DNA of 22,489 bases from Candidatus Bathyarchaeia archaeon (GTDB lineage: Archaea > Thermoproteota > Bathyarchaeia > Bathyarchaeales > Bathycorpusculaceae): positions 1 to 22,489 of the forward strand of contig JAVZNT010000015.1 in NCBI GenBank assembly GCA_038882655.1, in the 5' to 3' direction. The number at the start of each line of letters is the position of its first letter. Positions within the stretch are counted from its first letter, which is position 1. The position numbers and the translations under genes were made by a program. A model generated the notes under the pieces. It did no database searches. It saw only the letters and a list, made by a program, of their open reading frames with translations, and was not told where the DNA came from. Shown in pieces: positions 8,093-22,255 of the stretch.

Positions 8093-8268
8093 TACTACCA
8101 CCGATAATTTAATCAAAAATTGAAATATTTAATTTTGCCGAACGCCACATGCTAAACGAGCTTCAATCGTTGAAGATGAATAGGTGCATATATTATGCCT
8201 AGCAGTTTTGTTACAAAATCTTTAGAAAGAGAAAATGATAAAGCTATAACTAGTGAGAAGTGTTAGGT

Positions 8269-8862
8269 ATGTCGGAGAGAATGTGTGTTATAATAATTGA
8301 TATGCTTAATGATTTTATCACTGGCGATTTGAGGTGTGAAAGAGCCCAGCACATAATCCCAAATCTTAAGAGGCTTGTTGAGGCAGCCCGCAAATATGGC
8401 ATTCCCGTAATTTACAGCAATGATGCACATTATCCCAACGACCCCGAGGTTGTCCACCGTTGGGGGAAACACGCCATAAAAGGCACGAAGGGCGCTGAGG
8501 TTATACCAGAGCTTAAGCCCACCGATAAGGACTTTGTTGTAGAGAAGAGAACCTACAGCGGCTTTTATGAGACTGGTTTGGATCCGCTTTTGAGAAGCCT
8601 ATACAATGGCGAAGGTGTAAAAACTGTTGTTTTAGGCGGTTTGCACACGCACATATGTGTTAGGCACACGGCTGCAGACGCCTTCTTCAGAGGCTACAAA
8701 ATAATTGTGGCAAAGGATGGCGTGGAATCTTTCACGCAAGAGGATCACGAGCAAGGTTTGAAGTATTTAGAATATGTTTACAATGCAAAAATAATGAATG
8801 TTGACGAGATTATAAGGGAGATGGCGAAGAGCAGAAGGCAAGGCAAAAGCCATGCAAAATAA
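8269..8862 (+). CDS. Isochorismatase/nicotinamidase-family cysteine hydrolase
   Basis: Catalytic triad motifs IIDMLNDF (Asp), EKRTYSGF (Lys) and HICVRHT (Cys); DAH...WGKH metal-binding region. Alternative GTG start at 8260. Confidence 0.88.
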   Translation: MSERMCVIIIDMLNDFITGDLRCERAQHIIPNLKRLVEAARKYGIPVIYSNDAHYPNDPEVVHRWGKHAIKGTKGAEVIPELKPTDKDFVVEKRTYSGFYETGLDPLLRSLYNGEGVKTVVLGGLHTHICVRHTAADAFFRGYKIIVAKDGVESFTQEDHEQGLKYLEYVYNAKIMNVDEIIREMAKSRRQGKSHAK

Positions 8863-9655
8863 AATGGGAGTTGAAGATCTTCAAGATTTAAACATAGACG
8901 ACGTTATTTATGTCTGCTCTTCAAAGAGGTTCGGCGATCCTATTCATCAAGAGGGTGTTAGGCTTAAGAGGCTTTGGCTTAAGGAGATGCTTGACAATTA
9001 TGGTTCTTGTGCAAAAGTCGCCTACCACAATGGCAAACCAGCAGCCCAAATCTTATACTATCCAGAGGTGGCTGACAAAGCCAAGGCGTTTAGACGTGAA
9101 GGTGTCCTCGTTTTAAACTGCATTTATAATCCAACACCGGAGGCGCAGAAACTCGGGCTGGGTAAGATGTTGTTGCAAAGCGTGATTCAAGACGCTAGAC
9201 AGAGAAAATCATGTTTGGGCAATAAACCATGTAAATTCATTTTGGCAAATGCCTTCAACACAGGTGAGCTTCTCCCAATGCCTGACTTTTACAAGAAATA
9301 TGGTTTTATTTCCACGGGCGAAGGGAGCACAATGTATCTTCCAATAGAGGGCAAATACGAGCCCGTTCCCAAAGCGAAGTATGAACCGCTGGAAGAAGAT
9401 GCTGATAAAGCAGTAATATTTTATGGTCAAAAGTGTCAGTATTCTTATCCGTTTGCGAAAAAGATTGAAGCCATGATAAGGGAGACGCTGCCCAACATAA
9501 AAATAGAAATGATAAACGAGTGGGAAAAGCCGGAAGAATCGATAAAGCGGGGAAACTGGTGGCTTGTTGTGAACGCTAAGCCGATCCATACCTTCTTCAT
9601 GGATGCGGAAAGGTTTAAGGCTGAAATAAGACAAGCAGCATCTGGGATCTTTTAA
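8852..9655 (+). CDS. GNAT-family acetyltransferase, YoaP-like
   Basis: LKRLWLKE; QILYYPE; acetyl-CoA motif QKLGLGKMLL; FYKKYGF; C-terminal thioredoxin-like domain (IFYGQKCQY). Overlaps the upstream gene by 11 nt. Confidence 0.7.
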   Translation: MQNKMGVEDLQDLNIDDVIYVCSSKRFGDPIHQEGVRLKRLWLKEMLDNYGSCAKVAYHNGKPAAQILYYPEVADKAKAFRREGVLVLNCIYNPTPEAQKLGLGKMLLQSVIQDARQRKSCLGNKPCKFILANAFNTGELLPMPDFYKKYGFISTGEGSTMYLPIEGKYEPVPKAKYEPLEEDADKAVIFYGQKCQYSYPFAKKIEAMIRETLPNIKIEMINEWEKPEESIKRGNWWLVVNAKPIHTFFMDAERFKAEIRQAASGIF

Positions 9656-9682
9656 GTGAAAGGGTTTAATCCGAAATGGAAG

Positions 9683-9696
9683 GAAAAGTTTAAAAG
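9683..9696 (+). promoter_or_regulatory. Candidate BRE + TATA for an intergenic RNA
   Basis: GAAAAG-TTTAAAAG, predicting a start site at about 9718-9721, just before the long hairpin. Confidence 0.5.
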
Positions 9697-9718
9697 CAAC
9701 GTCAGAGATACGCATGAA

Positions 9719-9816
9719 GGATGTTGGAGAGAATGGTGGGGTTCTGATTTTCTCCCTTCTCTCCTTTCTCCCCTCTAAAAAGGCTCCACCATTCTCCCCA
9801 GAAATTAACATACTTT
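9719..9816 (+). ncRNA. Candidate small RNA: 20-bp hairpin with a CU-rich loop
   Basis: Arms 9724-9743 and 9782-9801 pair with 15 Watson-Crick pairs, 4 G-U pairs and 1 mismatch on the + strand. The 38-nt loop is mostly pyrimidine and a TATA box lies upstream. Ends are approximate. Confidence 0.45.
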
Positions 9817-9945
9817 AGCTTCTTATAGCTTGTGGAAGAATCTTCTATTTGCCACGCCAGCTACTCAAAGCCCGTTGAAAAGGGGCAAAATTTAAAGCTG
9901 ACGCCTTTTCAAATGAGAGTTTGCATGGTTGGATGGTGTCGTTGT

Positions 9946-10425
9946 ATGGCGAAAATCTTTATTGTTTATGACTCCAAAACCGGGAACACTGAGAAAATGG
10001 CTTTCGCTGTGGCTGATGGCGCAAGACAAGTGGAAGGCGTCGAGGTAACCGTTAAGAAAGTTGACCAGACAAGCCTTGAAGACTTGTTGACGGCAGATGG
10101 TATCATAATGGGCTCTCCAACATATTATGGGCAAATGTCCGCTAAGCTTAAGGCGTTAATAGATGAATCTGTGAAAATTCATGGGAAACTTGAAGGGAAG
10201 GCAGGTGCAGCCTTCACAAGTTCTGGCGGAACAGCCACCGGAGCGGAAACAACACTTTTGTCCATACTAAACGCCATGCTAATTCATGGAATGATAGTTC
10301 AAGGAAGAGCAGACGACAAACATTATGGTGCGGCTGCTGTGGAAAAACCCGACAAAAAAGAGCTTGAATATTGCCGCGAACTTGGAAAAAGAACCGCAAC
10401 TCTGGTCAAACGGCTGAAGACTTAA
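9946..10425 (+). CDS. Flavodoxin/WrbA-like NAD(P)H:quinone oxidoreductase
   Basis: FMN-binding loop IVYDSKTGNTEKMA, ADGIIMGSPTYYG and GKAGAAFTSSG. ATG at 9946 follows GGTG; the ORF-track extension from 9832 looks non-coding. Confidence 0.88.
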   Translation: MAKIFIVYDSKTGNTEKMAFAVADGARQVEGVEVTVKKVDQTSLEDLLTADGIIMGSPTYYGQMSAKLKALIDESVKIHGKLEGKAGAAFTSSGGTATGAETTLLSILNAMLIHGMIVQGRADDKHYGAAAVEKPDKKELEYCRELGKRTATLVKRLKT

Positions 10426-10442: not shown

Positions 10443-10536
10443 TGGTGGGCCCGGCCGGATTTGAACCGGCGACCAACAGGTCTCTCAGTCATCAGGTTAT
10501 GAGCCTGTCGCTCTAACCTAGCTGAGCTACGGGCCC
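10443..10536 (-). tRNA. tRNA-Ile2(CAU) with a 16-nt intron at 37/38 (10482-10497); CCA encoded
   Basis: GGGCCCG acceptor stem, GCUC/GAGC D-stem, ACAGG/CCUGU anticodon stem, CAU anticodon, GCCGG-UUCAAAU-CCGGC T arm and ACCA end. BHB central helix CUCA/UGAG. The GGGCCCG acceptor is typical of archaeal Ile tRNAs (agmatidine-modified C34), so the Ile rather than Met identity is inferred. Confidence 0.88.
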
Positions 10537-12243: not shown

Positions 12244-14454
12244 TTACTCTTCGTCTATAAACATGTCTGGTGTTGGCTTCTCTTGAGGCAATCCTTTCCT
12301 TTCGCGTATCCAACTAATAACTTCTGAAGCTATGTTTTCCGGAACTTTCTCCCAATGGTCGAAGGTGCACTGCCAAAAGGCATGTCCAGAAGTAGCGGAA
12401 CGCATTTCAGCCGACAAGCCGAAAGTCTCAGCCACTGGAATATAGCCAGTAATCATTGTTAGAATGCCCCTCTGCTCCGAAGCCAGTATCCTCCCTCCTT
12501 TTCGTGTTATTATGCTTATGCAATCCCCGACCCATTGAGCTGGAACAGAAACCCCAATCTTATAAACGGGTTCAAGAAGCACCGGTTTAGCCGTCAAAAA
12601 AGACCCAAAAATTGCGCGGCGAATCGCCGGCAGAATCTGGGCTGGTCCGCGGTGAACCGGATCCTCGTGAAGCTGGGCGTCTATAAGCTTAACTTTCACT
12701 CCTCGGAAGGGCTCCTCGCACAGTGGTCCAGCCCTACAAGCCCACCTAAAACCAGCAATGATCATTTCCCTTGCTTCTCGCAAGTATTGGACACCCTTAG
12801 TCGCATCTACAAGTATGTTGCGGTGCTCATCTATAGCCAAAATGTTCCGCACTTCTTCAGCCGGCCATTCAGCCTCTTTGAAGAGAACATTGCCAATCTG
12901 TTTTTTCCCCATTTCTTCGGCGATTTCACTTGCTTCTACTAGGTTTATGATCTTCTCCTCTAACGGTTCGACTTGAACCCAGAATCTATTGTGCGTATTG
13001 GGGCTTTTAGCCATGGTTATTACACCTTTGCCAGCGACGCTTTCCCTATAAACCACTATTGGCGTGGAAGTTATGATTTCCAATCCGCCGCCATAATCCC
13101 GAAGGAATTTCACGGCAATTTCAAGGTGGAGTTCACCCATGCCGCTCAGCAAGTATTCGCCTGTCTCCTTGTTTATAATGGTTACAAGGTTTGGGTCTTC
13201 AATGGAAAGTCTGTTCATGGCGTCTACTAGACGTGGCAAATCTTGGGGGTGTTTTGGTTCAAGGGCTATTGTTATGACGGGTTCTGAAAGGTACCTTATC
13301 CGTTCAAAGGGAACCATCACGTCTTTGTGGGCTAAATCTACAAGGGTTTCTCCAGCCCTAGCCAAATCTAAGCCCAAAAGCGCCGCAATATTTCCAGCCG
13401 TTATCTTGTCAACAACTTCTCTGAAGGCACTCATATACATGGAAACCTGCTGGACGCGGTAATCTTTGCGTGCACCCACAAGGTAAACCTGGTCGCCTTC
13501 CTTAACAGAGCCTGAGAAAAGCCTTCCGGTCGCCACTAAACCCGCGTGGGGATCCATCTGTGCCATTGTTATACACATCACTGTTGGTCCGTTGTCGTCG
13601 CAGTTCAGCATGGCTTGCCCAATCTCAGATGCCAAGTCGCCTTTCCATATTCTCGGTAATCTATACTTTTGGGCTTCTATAGGGTTTGAAATGTTTTTCA
13701 CCACCATGTCTAGAATGGCGTTGTGAAGCGGAATCAACCGGGCAAGTTTTTGATGCTCGCCTCGAGTGTAAGCCTCTATTATGTCGCTGAATTTGACTCC
13801 TTTCTCTTGGGCGATTTTTAGGGTGAAGCCCCAACGGTGCAGCGCAGAACCAAAAGCCACAGTCTCCCTATGGGGGTCAACCTTCCACTTGTCCTTGAAT
13901 TCCTGCTCCCCATAAAGCTCTACTAAATTGTTGAAGTCTCTGATAATACGCATAAACTTGTCTTGGATCTCGCTTGGAGTAAGTCTCAACTCCTTTACTA
14001 ATCGGTCAACCTTATTAATGAATAAGACGGGGCGCACCCTTTCTTCTAGGGCTTGGCGAGTCACGGTTTCTGTTTGAACCATGACCTCCTCAACAGCGTC
14101 TACAACTACCACTGCGCCGTCAATAGCCCTCAAAGCCCTTGTAACCTTACCCGTAAAGTCCACATGCCCAGGCGTGTCAACCAAGTTTATGACGTAAGGG
14201 CGACCGCCAATCTCGTGTAAAAGTGAAATATTGGCAGTTTTAATTGTTATTCCGCGTTTCTGTTCCTCCTCTAAATAGTCCAGAGCTCGAGCCTCCCCGG
14301 CTATTCTAGGCGAAAGCAAACCAGCCTCAGCCAAAAGAGAATCAGTCATGGTTGTTTTTCCATGGTCTATGTGGGCTATTATGCCAATATTGCGAATATT
14401 CTCCTTCCTATGCATCAGCTTTAGAATTTCTGCGGTTTGCCTAAACTTTGGCAA
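12244..14454 (-). CDS. fusA: Translation elongation factor 2, copy with canonical switch I
   Basis: 736 aa; G1 AHIDHGKTT, G2 RGITI, G3 DTPGHVDF, G4 NKVD, GSA, GMGELHLE and diphthamide loop HEDPVHRGPAQ. GGTGA SD followed by TTG. Confidence 0.93.
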   Translation of the reverse strand: MPKFRQTAEILKLMHRKENIRNIGIIAHIDHGKTTMTDSLLAEAGLLSPRIAGEARALDYLEEEQKRGITIKTANISLLHEIGGRPYVINLVDTPGHVDFTGKVTRALRAIDGAVVVVDAVEEVMVQTETVTRQALEERVRPVLFINKVDRLVKELRLTPSEIQDKFMRIIRDFNNLVELYGEQEFKDKWKVDPHRETVAFGSALHRWGFTLKIAQEKGVKFSDIIEAYTRGEHQKLARLIPLHNAILDMVVKNISNPIEAQKYRLPRIWKGDLASEIGQAMLNCDDNGPTVMCITMAQMDPHAGLVATGRLFSGSVKEGDQVYLVGARKDYRVQQVSMYMSAFREVVDKITAGNIAALLGLDLARAGETLVDLAHKDVMVPFERIRYLSEPVITIALEPKHPQDLPRLVDAMNRLSIEDPNLVTIINKETGEYLLSGMGELHLEIAVKFLRDYGGGLEIITSTPIVVYRESVAGKGVITMAKSPNTHNRFWVQVEPLEEKIINLVEASEIAEEMGKKQIGNVLFKEAEWPAEEVRNILAIDEHRNILVDATKGVQYLREAREMIIAGFRWACRAGPLCEEPFRGVKVKLIDAQLHEDPVHRGPAQILPAIRRAIFGSFLTAKPVLLEPVYKIGVSVPAQWVGDCISIITRKGGRILASEQRGILTMITGYIPVAETFGLSAEMRSATSGHAFWQCTFDHWEKVPENIASEVISWIRERKGLPQEKPTPDMFIDEE

Positions 14455-14675: not shown

Positions 14676-16895
14676 ATGGGTCGTTATAGGCAAATAGAGG
14701 ATATAGTTAAACTGATGAATAACACTGAAAGGATAAGGAACACAAGCATAATTGCTCATGTTGACCATGGCAAGACAACGCTTTCAGACAGCCTCTTGGC
14801 TGCTGCTGGCATAATCAGCGAGCAAGTGGCTGGACAGAAGCTTTTCCTAGACTCTTGGGAGCTTGAGCAGAAGAGACAGATGACGGTTTTCGCTTCCAAC
14901 ATTAGCTTAGTCCACACTTTCAACGGCGCGGACTACCTCATAAACCTCATAGACACGCCGGGACATATAGACTTTAGCGGAAACGTAACCAGAAGTTTAA
15001 GAGCTGTTGACGGCGCCTTGGTGGTGGTTGACGCTGTTGAAGGCCCCATGACCCAGACTGAAACCGTTTTGATGCAAGCCCTCCGCGAACGAGTAAAACC
15101 CATACTCTTCATTAATAAGGTTGACCGTTTAATCCGAGAGTTGAAGCTAACTCCAGAAGAGATGCAGAAGAAGTTTGCAAGAATAATCACGAGGATAAAC
15201 AGCATCATTGAGAAGTATGCGCCGCCAGAGCACAAGAAGGACTGGCAGGTTAAAGTCGAAGACGGACGTGTTGCTTTCGGCTCTGCCCTTCATAAATGGG
15301 GCTTAAACCTACCCCACATGAAGGCTAAAGGCATAACCTTCAAAGACATTATTGATGCTTACACCGGCGAGCCTGAAGAAATTAGGCAGAAGGTTGAAGC
15401 CCTAAGCAAACGCATACCCCTCTACGAGCCAGTTCTGGACATGTTCTGTGAGCATTTACCAAACCCGTTAGAGGCGCAGCATTATAGGCAGAGCCAAATC
15501 TGGCCGGGAGACCCAAACAGTCCCGTTGGCAAGGCTATGGCTAAGGTTGACCCAAATGGGCCGCTTCTGATGTGCATAACCTTTATTGAGGTTGACCCTC
15601 ACAGCGGTGTTGTAGCCATAGGCAGGGTTTTCAGCGGCACTGTTGAGAAGGGTAAAACTGTTCGCCTTGTGACAAGCCGCCAGAAGGGGAGCATACAGCA
15701 GGTTTACATGAGTATGGCAACGGACAGAGTCATAGTGGAAAAGATTCCGGCTGGGAACATTGCAGCACTTTCAGGCTTGCCATCTATCCACGTGGGCGAA
15801 ACAATAGCGGAGGAAGGCGTTGAAACAGCACCCTTCGAAGCCTTAAAGTATGTTTCAGACCCCGTTGTCACAGTAGCTGTTGAACCAGAAGATGTTAAAG
15901 ACCTGCCACTTTTCGATAAGGTTATTCATAAGCTAACCCTTGAAGACCCGAATCTCCACTTTAAGATAGACAAGGAAAGTGGGCAATACCTGCTCAGCGG
16001 TATGGGCGAACTCCACTTGGAGGTTACAGCCTACCGCATGCAGGAAGCCGGCTTAAAAGTTAGAATGAGCAAACCCATAGTGATTTACCGGGAAACAATA
16101 AGTCGCGACTACAAAGGACCAGCAGTGATGGGTAAGAGTCCCAACAAGCATAATAAGCTTTGGGTAACCGTTGAAAGACTGCAGTCAGAAGTTATAGAAG
16201 CTATTAAGACGGGAAAGATTAATGAAATGCAAACTCGTGATGAACGCCAGAAAATCCTGATGAAGGAGTTCAGCTGGTCCACCGAAGATGCGCGCAACGT
16301 AATTGCCATAGAAGGCACAAGCATCCTTGTCAACAGGATTAAGGGTAGGCAGTACGTGGAAGAAGTTTTGGACCATGTTAGGTCAGGCTTTAGAGACGCC
16401 GTTGCCACGGGTGTTTTGGCAAAGGAACCCATGTACGGGCTTAAAGTAAACCTTGAAGACATCCTCATTCACGAGGATCCGGTTCACCGCGGACCAGCCC
16501 AAATTTTACCCATGACTTGGCGTCCCATTTGGGGCTCCTTCCTCCTAAGCGAACCAAAACTTCTGGAGCCAATTCTAAGCTTTGAATGTAAGGTTCCCAA
16601 CGACTTTGTAAGTCCGGTCATTACGCTTTTGCAGAAGCGAAGAGGCAGAATCCTAGACATGGTTAACGAGGAAGACATGGTCATTGTGAAAGCGGAACTG
16701 CCGGTGGCGGAATCCTTCGGAATAGCCGACGAACTGCGCTCTTCAACACAGGGAAGAGCCTTCTGGGCAACCCAGTTCAGCCGTTGGGCACCGGTGCCAG
16801 AATCAATGCAAGCAGAAGTCATAAAACAGATACGCGAAAGAAAAGGCTTGCCACCAACACCACCGAGACCAGAAGAATTCTGCGAAGAAGAGTAA
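14676..16895 (+). CDS. Translation elongation factor 2 paralog with deviant switch I
   Basis: 739 aa; AHVDHGKTT, G2 altered to RQMTV, DTPGHIDF, NKVD, GMGELHLE and HEDPVHRGPAQ. Confidence 0.92.
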   Translation: MGRYRQIEDIVKLMNNTERIRNTSIIAHVDHGKTTLSDSLLAAAGIISEQVAGQKLFLDSWELEQKRQMTVFASNISLVHTFNGADYLINLIDTPGHIDFSGNVTRSLRAVDGALVVVDAVEGPMTQTETVLMQALRERVKPILFINKVDRLIRELKLTPEEMQKKFARIITRINSIIEKYAPPEHKKDWQVKVEDGRVAFGSALHKWGLNLPHMKAKGITFKDIIDAYTGEPEEIRQKVEALSKRIPLYEPVLDMFCEHLPNPLEAQHYRQSQIWPGDPNSPVGKAMAKVDPNGPLLMCITFIEVDPHSGVVAIGRVFSGTVEKGKTVRLVTSRQKGSIQQVYMSMATDRVIVEKIPAGNIAALSGLPSIHVGETIAEEGVETAPFEALKYVSDPVVTVAVEPEDVKDLPLFDKVIHKLTLEDPNLHFKIDKESGQYLLSGMGELHLEVTAYRMQEAGLKVRMSKPIVIYRETISRDYKGPAVMGKSPNKHNKLWVTVERLQSEVIEAIKTGKINEMQTRDERQKILMKEFSWSTEDARNVIAIEGTSILVNRIKGRQYVEEVLDHVRSGFRDAVATGVLAKEPMYGLKVNLEDILIHEDPVHRGPAQILPMTWRPIWGSFLLSEPKLLEPILSFECKVPNDFVSPVITLLQKRRGRILDMVNEEDMVIVKAELPVAESFGIADELRSSTQGRAFWATQFSRWAPVPESMQAEVIKQIRERKGLPPTPPRPEEFCEEE

Positions 16896-16972: not shown

Positions 16973-17734
16973 ATGGAAACCGAAAGCCTAAAGGTCTTTC
17001 TCACACGTCTCCATGAGGAACCATTCGCCTCAGTGCTATGCTATCCAAAACCAGCCAAAGCTGAGCTTGGAAAACGCATAAAAGAGCTAGAAAAATTAGG
17101 AGTAACAGCACTGGAATTCTGCGGAGAAAAACAAGTTTCAAACTTGAAAGTCTTAGGCAAGGGATGCGTCGGCATAGTTGTAAAAGCTTATAGAGGCGGC
17201 GAGGCAATAGCCCTAAAAATCCGAAGGGTGGATGCAGATCGTGTCACAATGTTGCATGAGGCTGAAATGATTAAGATAGCCAACTCCGTTAATGTTGGAC
17301 CAAGGCTTTTAGACGTGAGCAAAAACTTTTTGCTGATGCAGTTTGTAAAAGGCGATTTACTTCCAGAATGGCTAGAAAAACGCCCTAGCAAAACACGCCT
17401 AAAAAATGTTTTGAGAGATGTTCTAGAGCAGTGTTGGCGTCTTGACAAGATCGGATTGGACCATGGCGAGTTGAGCCACGCTCCAAAGCACATAATTGTA
17501 GATAGCCAAGACAAGCCCTTCATATTGGACTTTGAAACCGCCAGCACAAATCGTAAACCATCAAATGTTACTTCGATTACGCAGTTCCTCTTCATAAGCG
17601 GCAAAGTAGCCGAAAAAATAGCCAAAAAACTTGGTGAAAGAGATAAAAAAACCATTATTGAGGCTTTAAGGCGGTATAAGGCTGATGGAAGCCGCCAAAA
17701 CTTTGAGGCACTATTGTCGGTTTGCGTTCTCTAG
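16973..17734 (+). CDS. Atypical archaeal Ser/Thr protein kinase (RIO/Bud32-like fold)
   Basis: LGKGCVGIV glycine loop, ALKIRR, HEAE, catalytic loop DHGELS and ILDFE. ATG at 16973 follows GGTGA; the ORF-track start at 16784 overlaps EF-2. Confidence 0.8.
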   Translation: METESLKVFLTRLHEEPFASVLCYPKPAKAELGKRIKELEKLGVTALEFCGEKQVSNLKVLGKGCVGIVVKAYRGGEAIALKIRRVDADRVTMLHEAEMIKIANSVNVGPRLLDVSKNFLLMQFVKGDLLPEWLEKRPSKTRLKNVLRDVLEQCWRLDKIGLDHGELSHAPKHIIVDSQDKPFILDFETASTNRKPSNVTSITQFLFISGKVAEKIAKKLGERDKKTIIEALRRYKADGSRQNFEALLSVCVL

Positions 17735-17928
17735 GCAACATAGTCAATTTTAGCTTTTACGTTAGCATTTTGCCCGATGTTTCTGTTGTCAACTAATTCA
17801 AGTTTTAACTCGTTTAAAAGTTGGGTTAAATCCAACCAAGTCTCCACTTGAAGTTGTCTAGCAACCCGCCTCTTCTCATAAAGAAGCGGAACAAAGTCAA
17901 CAAAAAGCCAGCCATATGCCTCAGCCAA
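17731..17928 (-). CDS. Small hypothetical protein (65 aa)
   Basis: TTG start follows a purine-rich leader (GAGAAAGGGGAGAAGGGAGAGAAAGCC) with TATA-like TATTAAAT at about 17979-17986. It fills the intergenic gap and its stop overlaps the kinase stop. Confidence 0.55.
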   Translation of the reverse strand: MAEAYGWLFVDFVPLLYEKRRVARQLQVETWLDLTQLLNELKLELVDNRNIGQNANVKAKIDYVA

Positions 17929-18092
17929 AGGCTTTCTCTCCCTTCTCCCCTTTCTCAATTGAGAAGAGAAGGCTAACCATTTAATAACCATGTATGGAAG
18001 AATCTTCTAGAAGAAAAGGTGCATGAACAGTTTTAACGGTCTTGTTGAAAAGGTTTAAAACCGGCTTTCTGGAATTTAGCCACGGTGTTCAG

Positions 18093-22147: not shown

Positions 22148-22255
22148 TGGTGCCGGGGGCGGGATTCGAGCCCGCGACTTCTGGCGTTGGGCGCTTAGCC
22201 CCATTCGACTCCAGATTATGAGTCTGGCGCCCATTCCAGGCTAGGCTACCCCGGC
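22148..22255 (-). tRNA. Elongator tRNA-Met(CAU) with a 30-nt intron at 45/46 (22179-22208); CCA encoded
   Basis: GCCGGGG/CCCCGGC acceptor, GCCU/GGGC D stem, CCAGA-CUCAUAA-UCUGG anticodon arm, GCGGG-CUCGAAU-CCCGC T arm and ACCA end. Removing the intron restores the standard AGGUC variable loop. Confidence 0.88.

Follow-up and report, generated by a model that had tools for sequence, protein, structure and literature searches.

The window analysed here, that is, the whole stretch of 22,489 nucleotides, is contig C15 of a 1.02-Mb assembly in 27 contigs, with a completeness rating of 84%. The homologues retrieved for it carry Bathyarchaeia source names, and the related sequencing runs are labelled as hot-spring metagenomes. 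Two loci of the window are of interest, a hairpin at 9.7 kb and a small protein gene at 17.9 kb. Upstream of the hairpin lie an isochorismatase-family gene and a weak GNAT-like open reading frame (ORF). Directly downstream, a flavodoxin/WrbA-like gene (9913-10425, + strand), identified through Pfam and NCBIfam, possesses its own TATA-like box at about 9886-9898. The small ORF is surrounded by a convergent RIO/Bud32-like kinase gene and a divergent purP-type gene with DUF1246/DUF1297.

The candidate small RNA extends from 9712 to 9809 on the + strand, where it matches a covariance model named R1, trained on 13 orthologues, with 109.6 bits. Structurally, it is a hairpin with arms of 14 bp (9726-9739 and 9786-9799), in which this genome has a single A-C mismatch as read on the + strand; the loop measures about 46 nt. 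The loop contains a CU-rich tract (9748-9776, + strand), the proposed seed, whose core CTCTCCTTTCTCCCC is nearly invariant family-wide. The tract is unpaired in the minimum-free-energy fold, in agreement with the earlier sequence-only reading, which had placed it in the loop of a 9.7-kb hairpin. A BRE/TATA-like promoter, GGAAAAG TTTAAAAG C (9682-9697, + strand), is conserved across genera in the alignment and resembles other promoters of this genome; the start of transcription is predicted at about 9717-9721. Among 41 aligned matches, one of them a reverse-strand hit, both sides change in 10 of the 17 stem pairs, and 94.4% of the stem cells are paired, versus 38-60% when the partner is slid. 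The covariation score was reached by none of 500 shuffles. A near-invariant, unpaired loop upon a covarying stem is the conserved seed that characterizes small RNAs (sRNAs) directed against the ribosome-binding site (RBS).

The distribution of this element is broad, yet restricted in its strong scores. Within one Bathyarchaeia family, R1 finds matches in 107 of 151 genomes, mostly with 2-4 copies per genome, and in an order-level sample in 23 of 121 genomes, the strong scores being confined to the same family. A DNA search of 41 related genomes yielded matches in 15, and outside the genus these cover the non-coding stretch only, with the flanking genes left uncovered. Rfam 15, searched with the whole window at gathering scores, returned only two tRNAs and a fluoride riboswitch, and no match for the hairpin. 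With E up to 10, the region 9500-10000 gave sub-threshold noise only (best 21 bits against a cut-off of 90), with no snoRNA family over threshold in the hairpin region, and three paralogue loci together with a site on contig C18 gave zero matches with E up to 1. ARAGORN detected no tRNA at the paralogue loci. The RNA family is thus absent from Rfam while occurring in 56 of the 70 genera of one Bathyarchaeia family. Guide RNAs are recognized by a C box (RUGAUGA) and a D box (CUGA), or by an ACA box with a pseudouridylation pocket and K-turn. A C/D-box or H/ACA guide RNA was considered here and rejected, the GAUGAUG and CUGA of the genus being replaced in other genera upon inspection of the alignment. 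As read from its sequence, the 9.7-kb hairpin is a conserved, unannotated and multi-copy structured RNA gene, with predicted transcription.

Four members of R1 are present in this genome, with 109.6, 34.4 and 26.7 bits and a marginal fourth at 16 bits (E = 1.3). Similarity and pattern searches revealed further copies of the CT tract on contigs C7 (33663-33687, a 25/25 match), C12 (29545-29572) and C2 (139275-139296, opposite strand), each within the large loop of a 10-14-bp hairpin. The CT motif is therefore a family, consisting of at least four hairpin copies and the leader of the small gene, even though R1 itself has no match at the 17.9-kb locus.

The copies differ in their surroundings. 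The C12 copy (C12:29499-29593), along with loci L105, L109, L113, L115 and L116, is found a few tens of nt past a stop codon, and the gene before these C12-type copies is conserved and co-oriented, encoding 361 aa with a product that ends in ...RWFEAFKAL. A C12-type copy may represent a 3'-UTR-derived small RNA. The C2 copy (C2:139242-139330, - strand) holds in its loop the tRNA T-loop-like GTTCGAATCC and adjoins an 11-bp GC-rich stem and two T6 runs.

The second locus is a conserved gene for a 65-aa protein (17731-17928, - strand, stop codon included). The TTG at 17928-17926 is likely its start codon, being aligned with the ATG of other genera. An 86-aa reading from the ATG at 17991, in which the tract would be coding, was rejected, as it meets an internal TGA in three same-genus genomes and the homologues begin with MAE(S/A)YGW. 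The sequence-only reading had considered this a small orphan gene, which is wrong. There are 180 homologues of 54-103 aa, mostly 61-66, all of them nameless and all from Bathyarchaeia. The protein is detected in 104 of the 151 family genomes, which answers the question of ORF conservation that the same reading had raised, and, with E up to 1, in 23 of 41 relatives, among them members of other families in the order. The protein alignment (A2) contains an invariant PLL...ARQ.Q.E.WLDL core (PLLYEKRRVARQLQVETWLDL), and the gene is single-copy and syntenic, with the RIO-like neighbour in 39/39. Pfam and NCBIfam hold no family for the protein, and the ESM Atlas gave no usable match. The AlphaFold model is one long helix of low confidence (mean pLDDT 57.8), and the N-terminal region includes a hydrophobic stretch, YGWLFVDFVPLLY.

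Directly before the TTG lies the proposed target site, a GA-rich 5' UTR (17929-17958, - strand) that includes the purine tract 17932-17956 and contains Shine-Dalgarno (SD)-like GGAG repeats; the purine-rich leader noted earlier is thus, as predicted from the promoter, an SD-containing 5' UTR. The promoter region of the small gene (17980-18009, - strand) consists of a TATA-like TTATTAAA (17987-17980) preceded by TAGAAGATTCTTCCA (18009-17995). From the TATA-like box at 17980-17987 we infer an mRNA start near 17957, so that the GA tract would represent almost the entire 5' UTR. For comparison, a set of 40 genomes was assembled, each holding the two features within 20 kb of one another on a single contig; four genomes noticed to carry them on separate contigs or at a distance of over 20 kb were set aside. 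The 40 genomes have a common layout upstream of the small gene, namely a TAGAA...TTCTA-type palindrome followed by a TTTTTACATAC-like piece, TTATAAG, a spacing of about 25-30 nt, and a GA-rich tract extending to the start codon. The same promoter architecture exists in 18 further genomes without an RNA match.

The link between the two loci is the CT tract. Its two copies, TCTCCCTTCTCTCCTTTCTC (9751-9770) and TCTCCCTTCTCCCCTTTCTC (17937-17956), agree at 19/20 positions, and with extension (9748-9770 versus 17934-17956) the identity is 21/23. Both mismatches have T in the 9.7-kb copy and C in the 17.9-kb copy, so a + strand RNA from 9.7 kb and a - strand RNA from 17.9 kb could pair without a break through 21 Watson-Crick and 2 G-U pairs. 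The identity, the uninterrupted 23-nt pairing and the wobble compatibility of both differences were all claimed by the sequence-only reading and were reproduced, coordinates included. Its caution about low complexity is equally well founded, as the genome contains 71 pure purine or pyrimidine runs of at least 18 nt. The likeness of the loci does not end with the tract. They also share AAGGCT..ACCATT and an exact 15-mer, TGGAAGAATCTTCTA, which occurs exactly twice in the genome (9833 and 17995, both + strand) and is positioned 58-82 nt 3' of the CT tracts at both loci.

A genome-wide duplex scan was performed with the loop, and the leader ranks fourth at -43.6 kcal/mol, behind the antisense of the loop itself, of C7 and of C12. 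Below the leader come the antisense of C2 (-38.3 kcal/mol) and the next unrelated site (-37.3 kcal/mol), which is within a coding frame. In the reverse scan with the leader, the 9.7-kb loop is first after the leader's own antisense with -43.3 kcal/mol, and the next site has -37.9 kcal/mol; the C12, C7 and C2 loops rank third, fourth and eleventh, again after the leader's own antisense. Once the antisense of the hairpin copies is set aside, loop and leader are reciprocal best partners genome-wide. Other CT tracts had been named as the threat to this pairing, and equally good unrelated matches were not found among them, loop and leader being about 5-6 kcal/mol ahead of the next unrelated site.

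The complementarity persists beyond this genome. RNA and small gene lie on opposite strands, 3.2-13.4 kb apart, in 40/40 genomes. The leader is the top site for the loop within the fetched locus of 4-22 kb in 29 of the 40, and has rank 2-5 in the other 11. Compared with 300 shuffles (at most 15/300), it passes in 36/40 by energy and 33/40 by longest perfect match, a lenient control given that shuffling also destroys the purine run. The longest perfect match between loop and leader has a median of 10 nt and a maximum of 17 nt over the 40 genomes, and several genera contain perfect matches of 13-17 nt. The half of the loop that is matched, TCTCCCTTCTC or CTCTCCTTTCTCCCC, varies by lineage. Complementarity of the seed to the SD or start codon is conserved across species, as is characteristic of anti-RBS sRNAs.

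Among the 151 family genomes, both features occur in 86, the RNA only in 21, the protein only in 18 and neither in 26. The co-occurrence of hairpin and ORF, which had been proposed as a check, is thus present, with an odds ratio of 5.9 that takes neither phylogeny nor incompleteness into account. Where only the protein occurs (18 genomes), the energy between leader and loop has a median of -19.5 versus -27.1 kcal/mol, and the purine run of the leader a median of 11 versus 15; these genomes cluster in few genera, and the leader contrasts stand without phylogenetic correction. Their leader retains a short GGGAGAAGG SD. The RNA is found without a detected protein in 21 genomes, one of which is rated 100% complete (G069), so the protein is not the sole role of the RNA.

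At the hairpin, the CT strand is likely the transcribed one, judging from the G-U bias and the promoter position. In the 40 orthologues, 41 stem cells are G-U on the CT strand versus 9 A-C cells, which would be G-U if the other strand were read, and 21 sequences prefer the CT strand with none for the opposite. The other 42 copies give 31 (CT strand) versus 16. A canonical TATA-like hexamer is situated upstream on the CT strand in 39/40 orthologues and 31/42 other copies, versus 7/40 and 7/42 for the mirror position, and its median distance to the 5' arm is 40 nt (31 parsed of the 40 orthologues). In 6/6 observed cases a C12-type copy comes after the stop codon of a gene with the same orientation, and the two T6 runs of the C2 copy lie 3' of the hairpin. 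Only 18 of the 31 parsed orthologues (of 40) have a T run of at least 4 past the hairpin.

On the far side of the hairpin there is a conserved block, CTTATAGCTTGTGGAAGAATCTTCTAT (9822-9848, without assigned strand), in 35/40 orthologues and 10/42 other copies, its median distance from the 3' arm being 29 nt. Read on the - strand, it is an operator-like palindrome followed by a TATA-like CTATAAG aimed at the hairpin, like the promoter of the small protein. The block could be a convergent antisense promoter, an upstream site for the flavodoxin-like gene, or a relic of duplication. As operator and TATA stand at the right distance, the GA strand is perhaps transcribed too, or instead. The presence of the same operator-like block at both loci suggests one regulon. 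It makes the loci related beyond the tract and would favour co-regulation, yet the likeness may be inherited. The generic pattern TAGAA-N4-7-TTCTA has no clear enrichment (14 matches versus 8.2 in shuffles). Clusters of TAGAAC/GTTCTA-type palindromes are seen upstream of some RNA copies (loci L088, L094 and L102 of other genomes) and at a few intergenic sites, those in this genome (G000) being C12:14700-14762 and C18:15430-15460; they may represent further sites of the same regulator.

The explanation we favour, tentatively and with slightly less than half of our confidence, is a trans-acting sRNA that masks the ribosome-binding site of the small-protein mRNA. Its foundation is observed, namely the structure, the conservation, and the complementarity together with its persistence. 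A promoter belonging to the hairpin itself would give rise to a + strand RNA of about 100 nt, in which a covarying stem of 14-17 bp would present a loop of about 45 nt with a near-invariant CU-rich core. This loop would pair with the 5' UTR of the small gene up to the start codon, through 23 contiguous pairs and with about -43 kcal/mol. Such pairing would block 30S binding and thereby repress translation, and might also alter mRNA stability. The C7, C12 and C2 copies, which bear the same motif, could target the same leader. Which strand is transcribed, where the RNA begins and ends, its very expression and any influence on the target are predictions in this mechanism. The sequence-only reading had offered a translational repressor among its options, and this option emerges as the best-supported one through the structured RNA gene, the SD leader and the complementarity in about 40 genomes, the opposite-sense transcription that it presupposes being predicted rather than observed. 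Speaking against an sRNA are the promiscuity of CU/GA pairing and the 11 of 40 leaders that are not top-ranked. Additionally, the loci share extra sequence, and the likeness of the tracts could have arisen by descent or gene conversion, without selection for pairing.

It is possible, albeit rather unlikely, that both loci belong to the same regulon or motif without any RNA-RNA pairing, and that the CU loop serves a pyrimidine-tract protein or acts as an anti-SD mimic. The leader would then be an extended strong SD, and its likeness to the loop would come from a GGAG/CUCC theme and the common descent of the loci, a proposition to which we give the same rather low weight. The 3' end of the 16S rRNA is GGAUCACCUCCU, hence the CUCC repeats are anti-SD-like, and other GA-rich leaders or sites reach -30 to -37 kcal/mol. 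The occurrence of the RNA without the protein in 21/151 genomes, the GGGAGAAGG SD retained in protein-only genomes, and the flanking sequence common to both loci all agree with this explanation. However, loop and leader are mutual best partners, about 5-6 kcal/mol above the next unrelated site with the hairpin-copy antisense excluded, stretches of 13-17 nt match perfectly in several genera, and the leader tract is longer in genomes with the RNA, all of which favour the masking sRNA. A shared motif family had also been suggested by the sequence-only reading. This is correct insofar as the CT motif recurs in four hairpins and a further promoter- or operator-like block is common to both loci; as an account of the match, the sRNA and target are better supported.

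Less probable still, and in our judgement unlikely, is an arrangement in which paralogous operator-plus-TATA promoters drive both tracts in one and the same sense (GA), which would yield RNAs unable to pair. The 9.7-kb locus would in that case be a duplicated promoter-leader module without an ORF, an origin that we consider equally unlikely. The - strand of both loci does read as TAGAAGATTCTTCCA, a few nt, a TATA-like box, about 22-30 nt, and GA-rich sequence, and at the RNA locus the block is found in 35/40 orthologues at a median of 29 nt from the hairpin. Against this stand the G-U bias to the CT strand (41 versus 9 cells) and the CT-side promoter, present in 39/40 orthologues; among the other copies, the promoter occurs in 31/42 and the block in only 10/42. 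The C12-type copies, which lie in the 3' UTR sense of the upstream gene, and the oligo-T past the CT-strand hairpin in the C2 copy are likewise on the side of the CT strand.

A coherent feed-forward switch, which we regard as doubtful, would comprise sibling anti-SD sRNAs, one transcription factor acting on a TAGAAGATTCTTCCA-type operator, and an antisense GA-loop RNA. The sibling sRNAs would repress the micro-protein, and the transcription factor would activate both the micro-protein promoter and the convergent one directed at the sRNA gene. From the latter would come the antisense GA-loop RNA, by which the sRNA would be neutralised, the whole switch having been built from a duplicated promoter-leader module.

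It is improbable that the hairpin acts in cis on the flavodoxin/WrbA-like gene, as a leader, attenuator or riboswitch-like element, and matches the leader of the small gene only incidentally. The flavodoxin-like gene does adjoin the RNA on the same strand in 35/39 other genomes. Yet the TATA-like box about 22 nt before its ATG suggests a leaderless flavodoxin mRNA with its own promoter, C7 and C12 lie between convergent genes with no sense gene downstream, and no cis-regulatory family of Rfam matches the hairpin.

A type I toxin-antitoxin-like pair, in which the translation of a small hydrophobic toxin is blocked by an antisense-type RNA, is very improbable. The protein is indeed small, with its hydrophobic N-terminal stretch YGWLFVDFVPLLY and one long predicted helix, and an RNA complementary to the RBS of its gene exists. 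However, such systems have a small membrane-active toxin, an adjacent or overlapping antisense RNA and a patchy, often multi-copy distribution, whereas here the gene is single-copy and syntenic in 104/151 genomes with many invariant residues, and the RNA is 3.2-13.4 kb distant in 40/40 and occurs in several copies; Pfam and NCBIfam yield nothing for the protein. The antitoxin-like option of the sequence-only reading is unsupported on the same grounds, namely a highly conserved, single-copy, syntenic protein and a distant multi-copy RNA. Finally, a chance match of two low-complexity CT tracts, for which the 71 purine or pyrimidine runs of at least 18 nt could be cited, is ruled against by the mutual best partnership of loop and leader in a 1.02-Mb genome (antisense of hairpin copies excluded), by the second exact 15-mer near both tracts and unique to the two loci, and by the complementarity that persists in other genera, and is close to refuted.

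The masking sRNA has precedents in other organisms. In bacteria, RsaE/RoxS and the hairpins of RNAIII pair through C-rich loops with G-rich SD regions, and Qrr1-4 are sibling sRNAs in which near-identical seeds come from paralogous genes. These bacterial sRNAs use Hfq or other chaperones. The Bathyarchaeia RNA is like them in its unpaired, pyrimidine-rich, SD-targeting seed and in the existence of several near-identical seeds in paralogous genes, but their motifs are short and C-rich, whereas the Bathyarchaeia tract is a CU tract of 25-30 nt and not homologous. There is also a likeness to the class of 3'-UTR-derived sRNAs, since C12-type copies come directly after a co-oriented stop codon in 6/6 cases; unlike that class, the 9.7-kb copy and the C7 type have promoter-like boxes of their own.

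Within archaea, the closest counterparts are sRNA154 (loop 2) and sRNA41 of Methanosarcina mazei, trans-acting sRNAs described as masking ribosome-binding sites in a review (PMC5867862). They too are intergenic archaeal RNAs, and their exposed loop of anti-RBS sequence binds the RBS of an mRNA and represses the initiation of translation, which in the present case is predicted from sequence alone. Unlike them, the Bathyarchaeia hairpin belongs to another phylum and has no sequence or Rfam relation to either; it has a long covarying stem topped by one large loop of about 45 nt, with several copies per genome, and its target would be a 65-aa protein without assigned function. Known archaeal sRNA-target pairs are very few, and the examples in the same review are from cultured methanogens and haloarchaea (PMC5867862). 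Full-text literature, supplementary files aside, returned nothing on small or non-coding RNAs of Bathyarchaeia, and for the loop motif gave Methanosarcina and Haloferax work only, in which the motif itself was not found. If the favoured explanation is true, a lineage that only metagenomes have revealed would possess a widespread family of RNAs directed at a specific, testable target, which would add a new Rfam-type family and a regulon (sRNA, micro-protein and flavodoxin-like gene) to the annotation of Bathyarchaeia.

A few further observations were made at the RNA locus and elsewhere in the window. A 32-nt direct repeat of 72% identity connects 8252-8283, at the start of the isochorismatase gene, with 9704-9735 at the 5' arm of the hairpin, and ends in GGAGAGAATG; through it the stem arm resembles an SD-plus-ATG start region. 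A 200-aa ORF (9209-9811, - strand), antisense to the GNAT-like gene and starting within the RNA locus, is probably spurious, its ATG not being conserved in the alignment and no Pfam family being assigned. At 9670-9856, short contigs over the RNA and the block have 10-25x the depth of the flanking genes (two runs kept as contigs, probably DNA). Several strains may have collapsed onto the conserved sequence there or, should the libraries really be RNA, expression may be high. The only raw-read RNA run gave no matching read in about 12% of its reads. The fluoride riboswitch (crcB motif) is located at 12-88 on the - strand, with 49.4 bits against a gathering score of 34. The two tRNA matches are long (91-105 nt) and both on the - strand, at 10443-10536, called tRNA-Met (CAT) by ARAGORN, and at 22151-22255, which ARAGORN missed; this pattern suggests intron-containing archaeal tRNAs. 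Lastly, two divergent ORFs of 736-739 aa (12244-14454, - strand, and 14676-16895, + strand) have 70-73% DNA likeness over long inverted repeats. One of them was scanned and is an EF-2/EF-G-type GTPase, and the two look like a pair of EF-2 paralogues.
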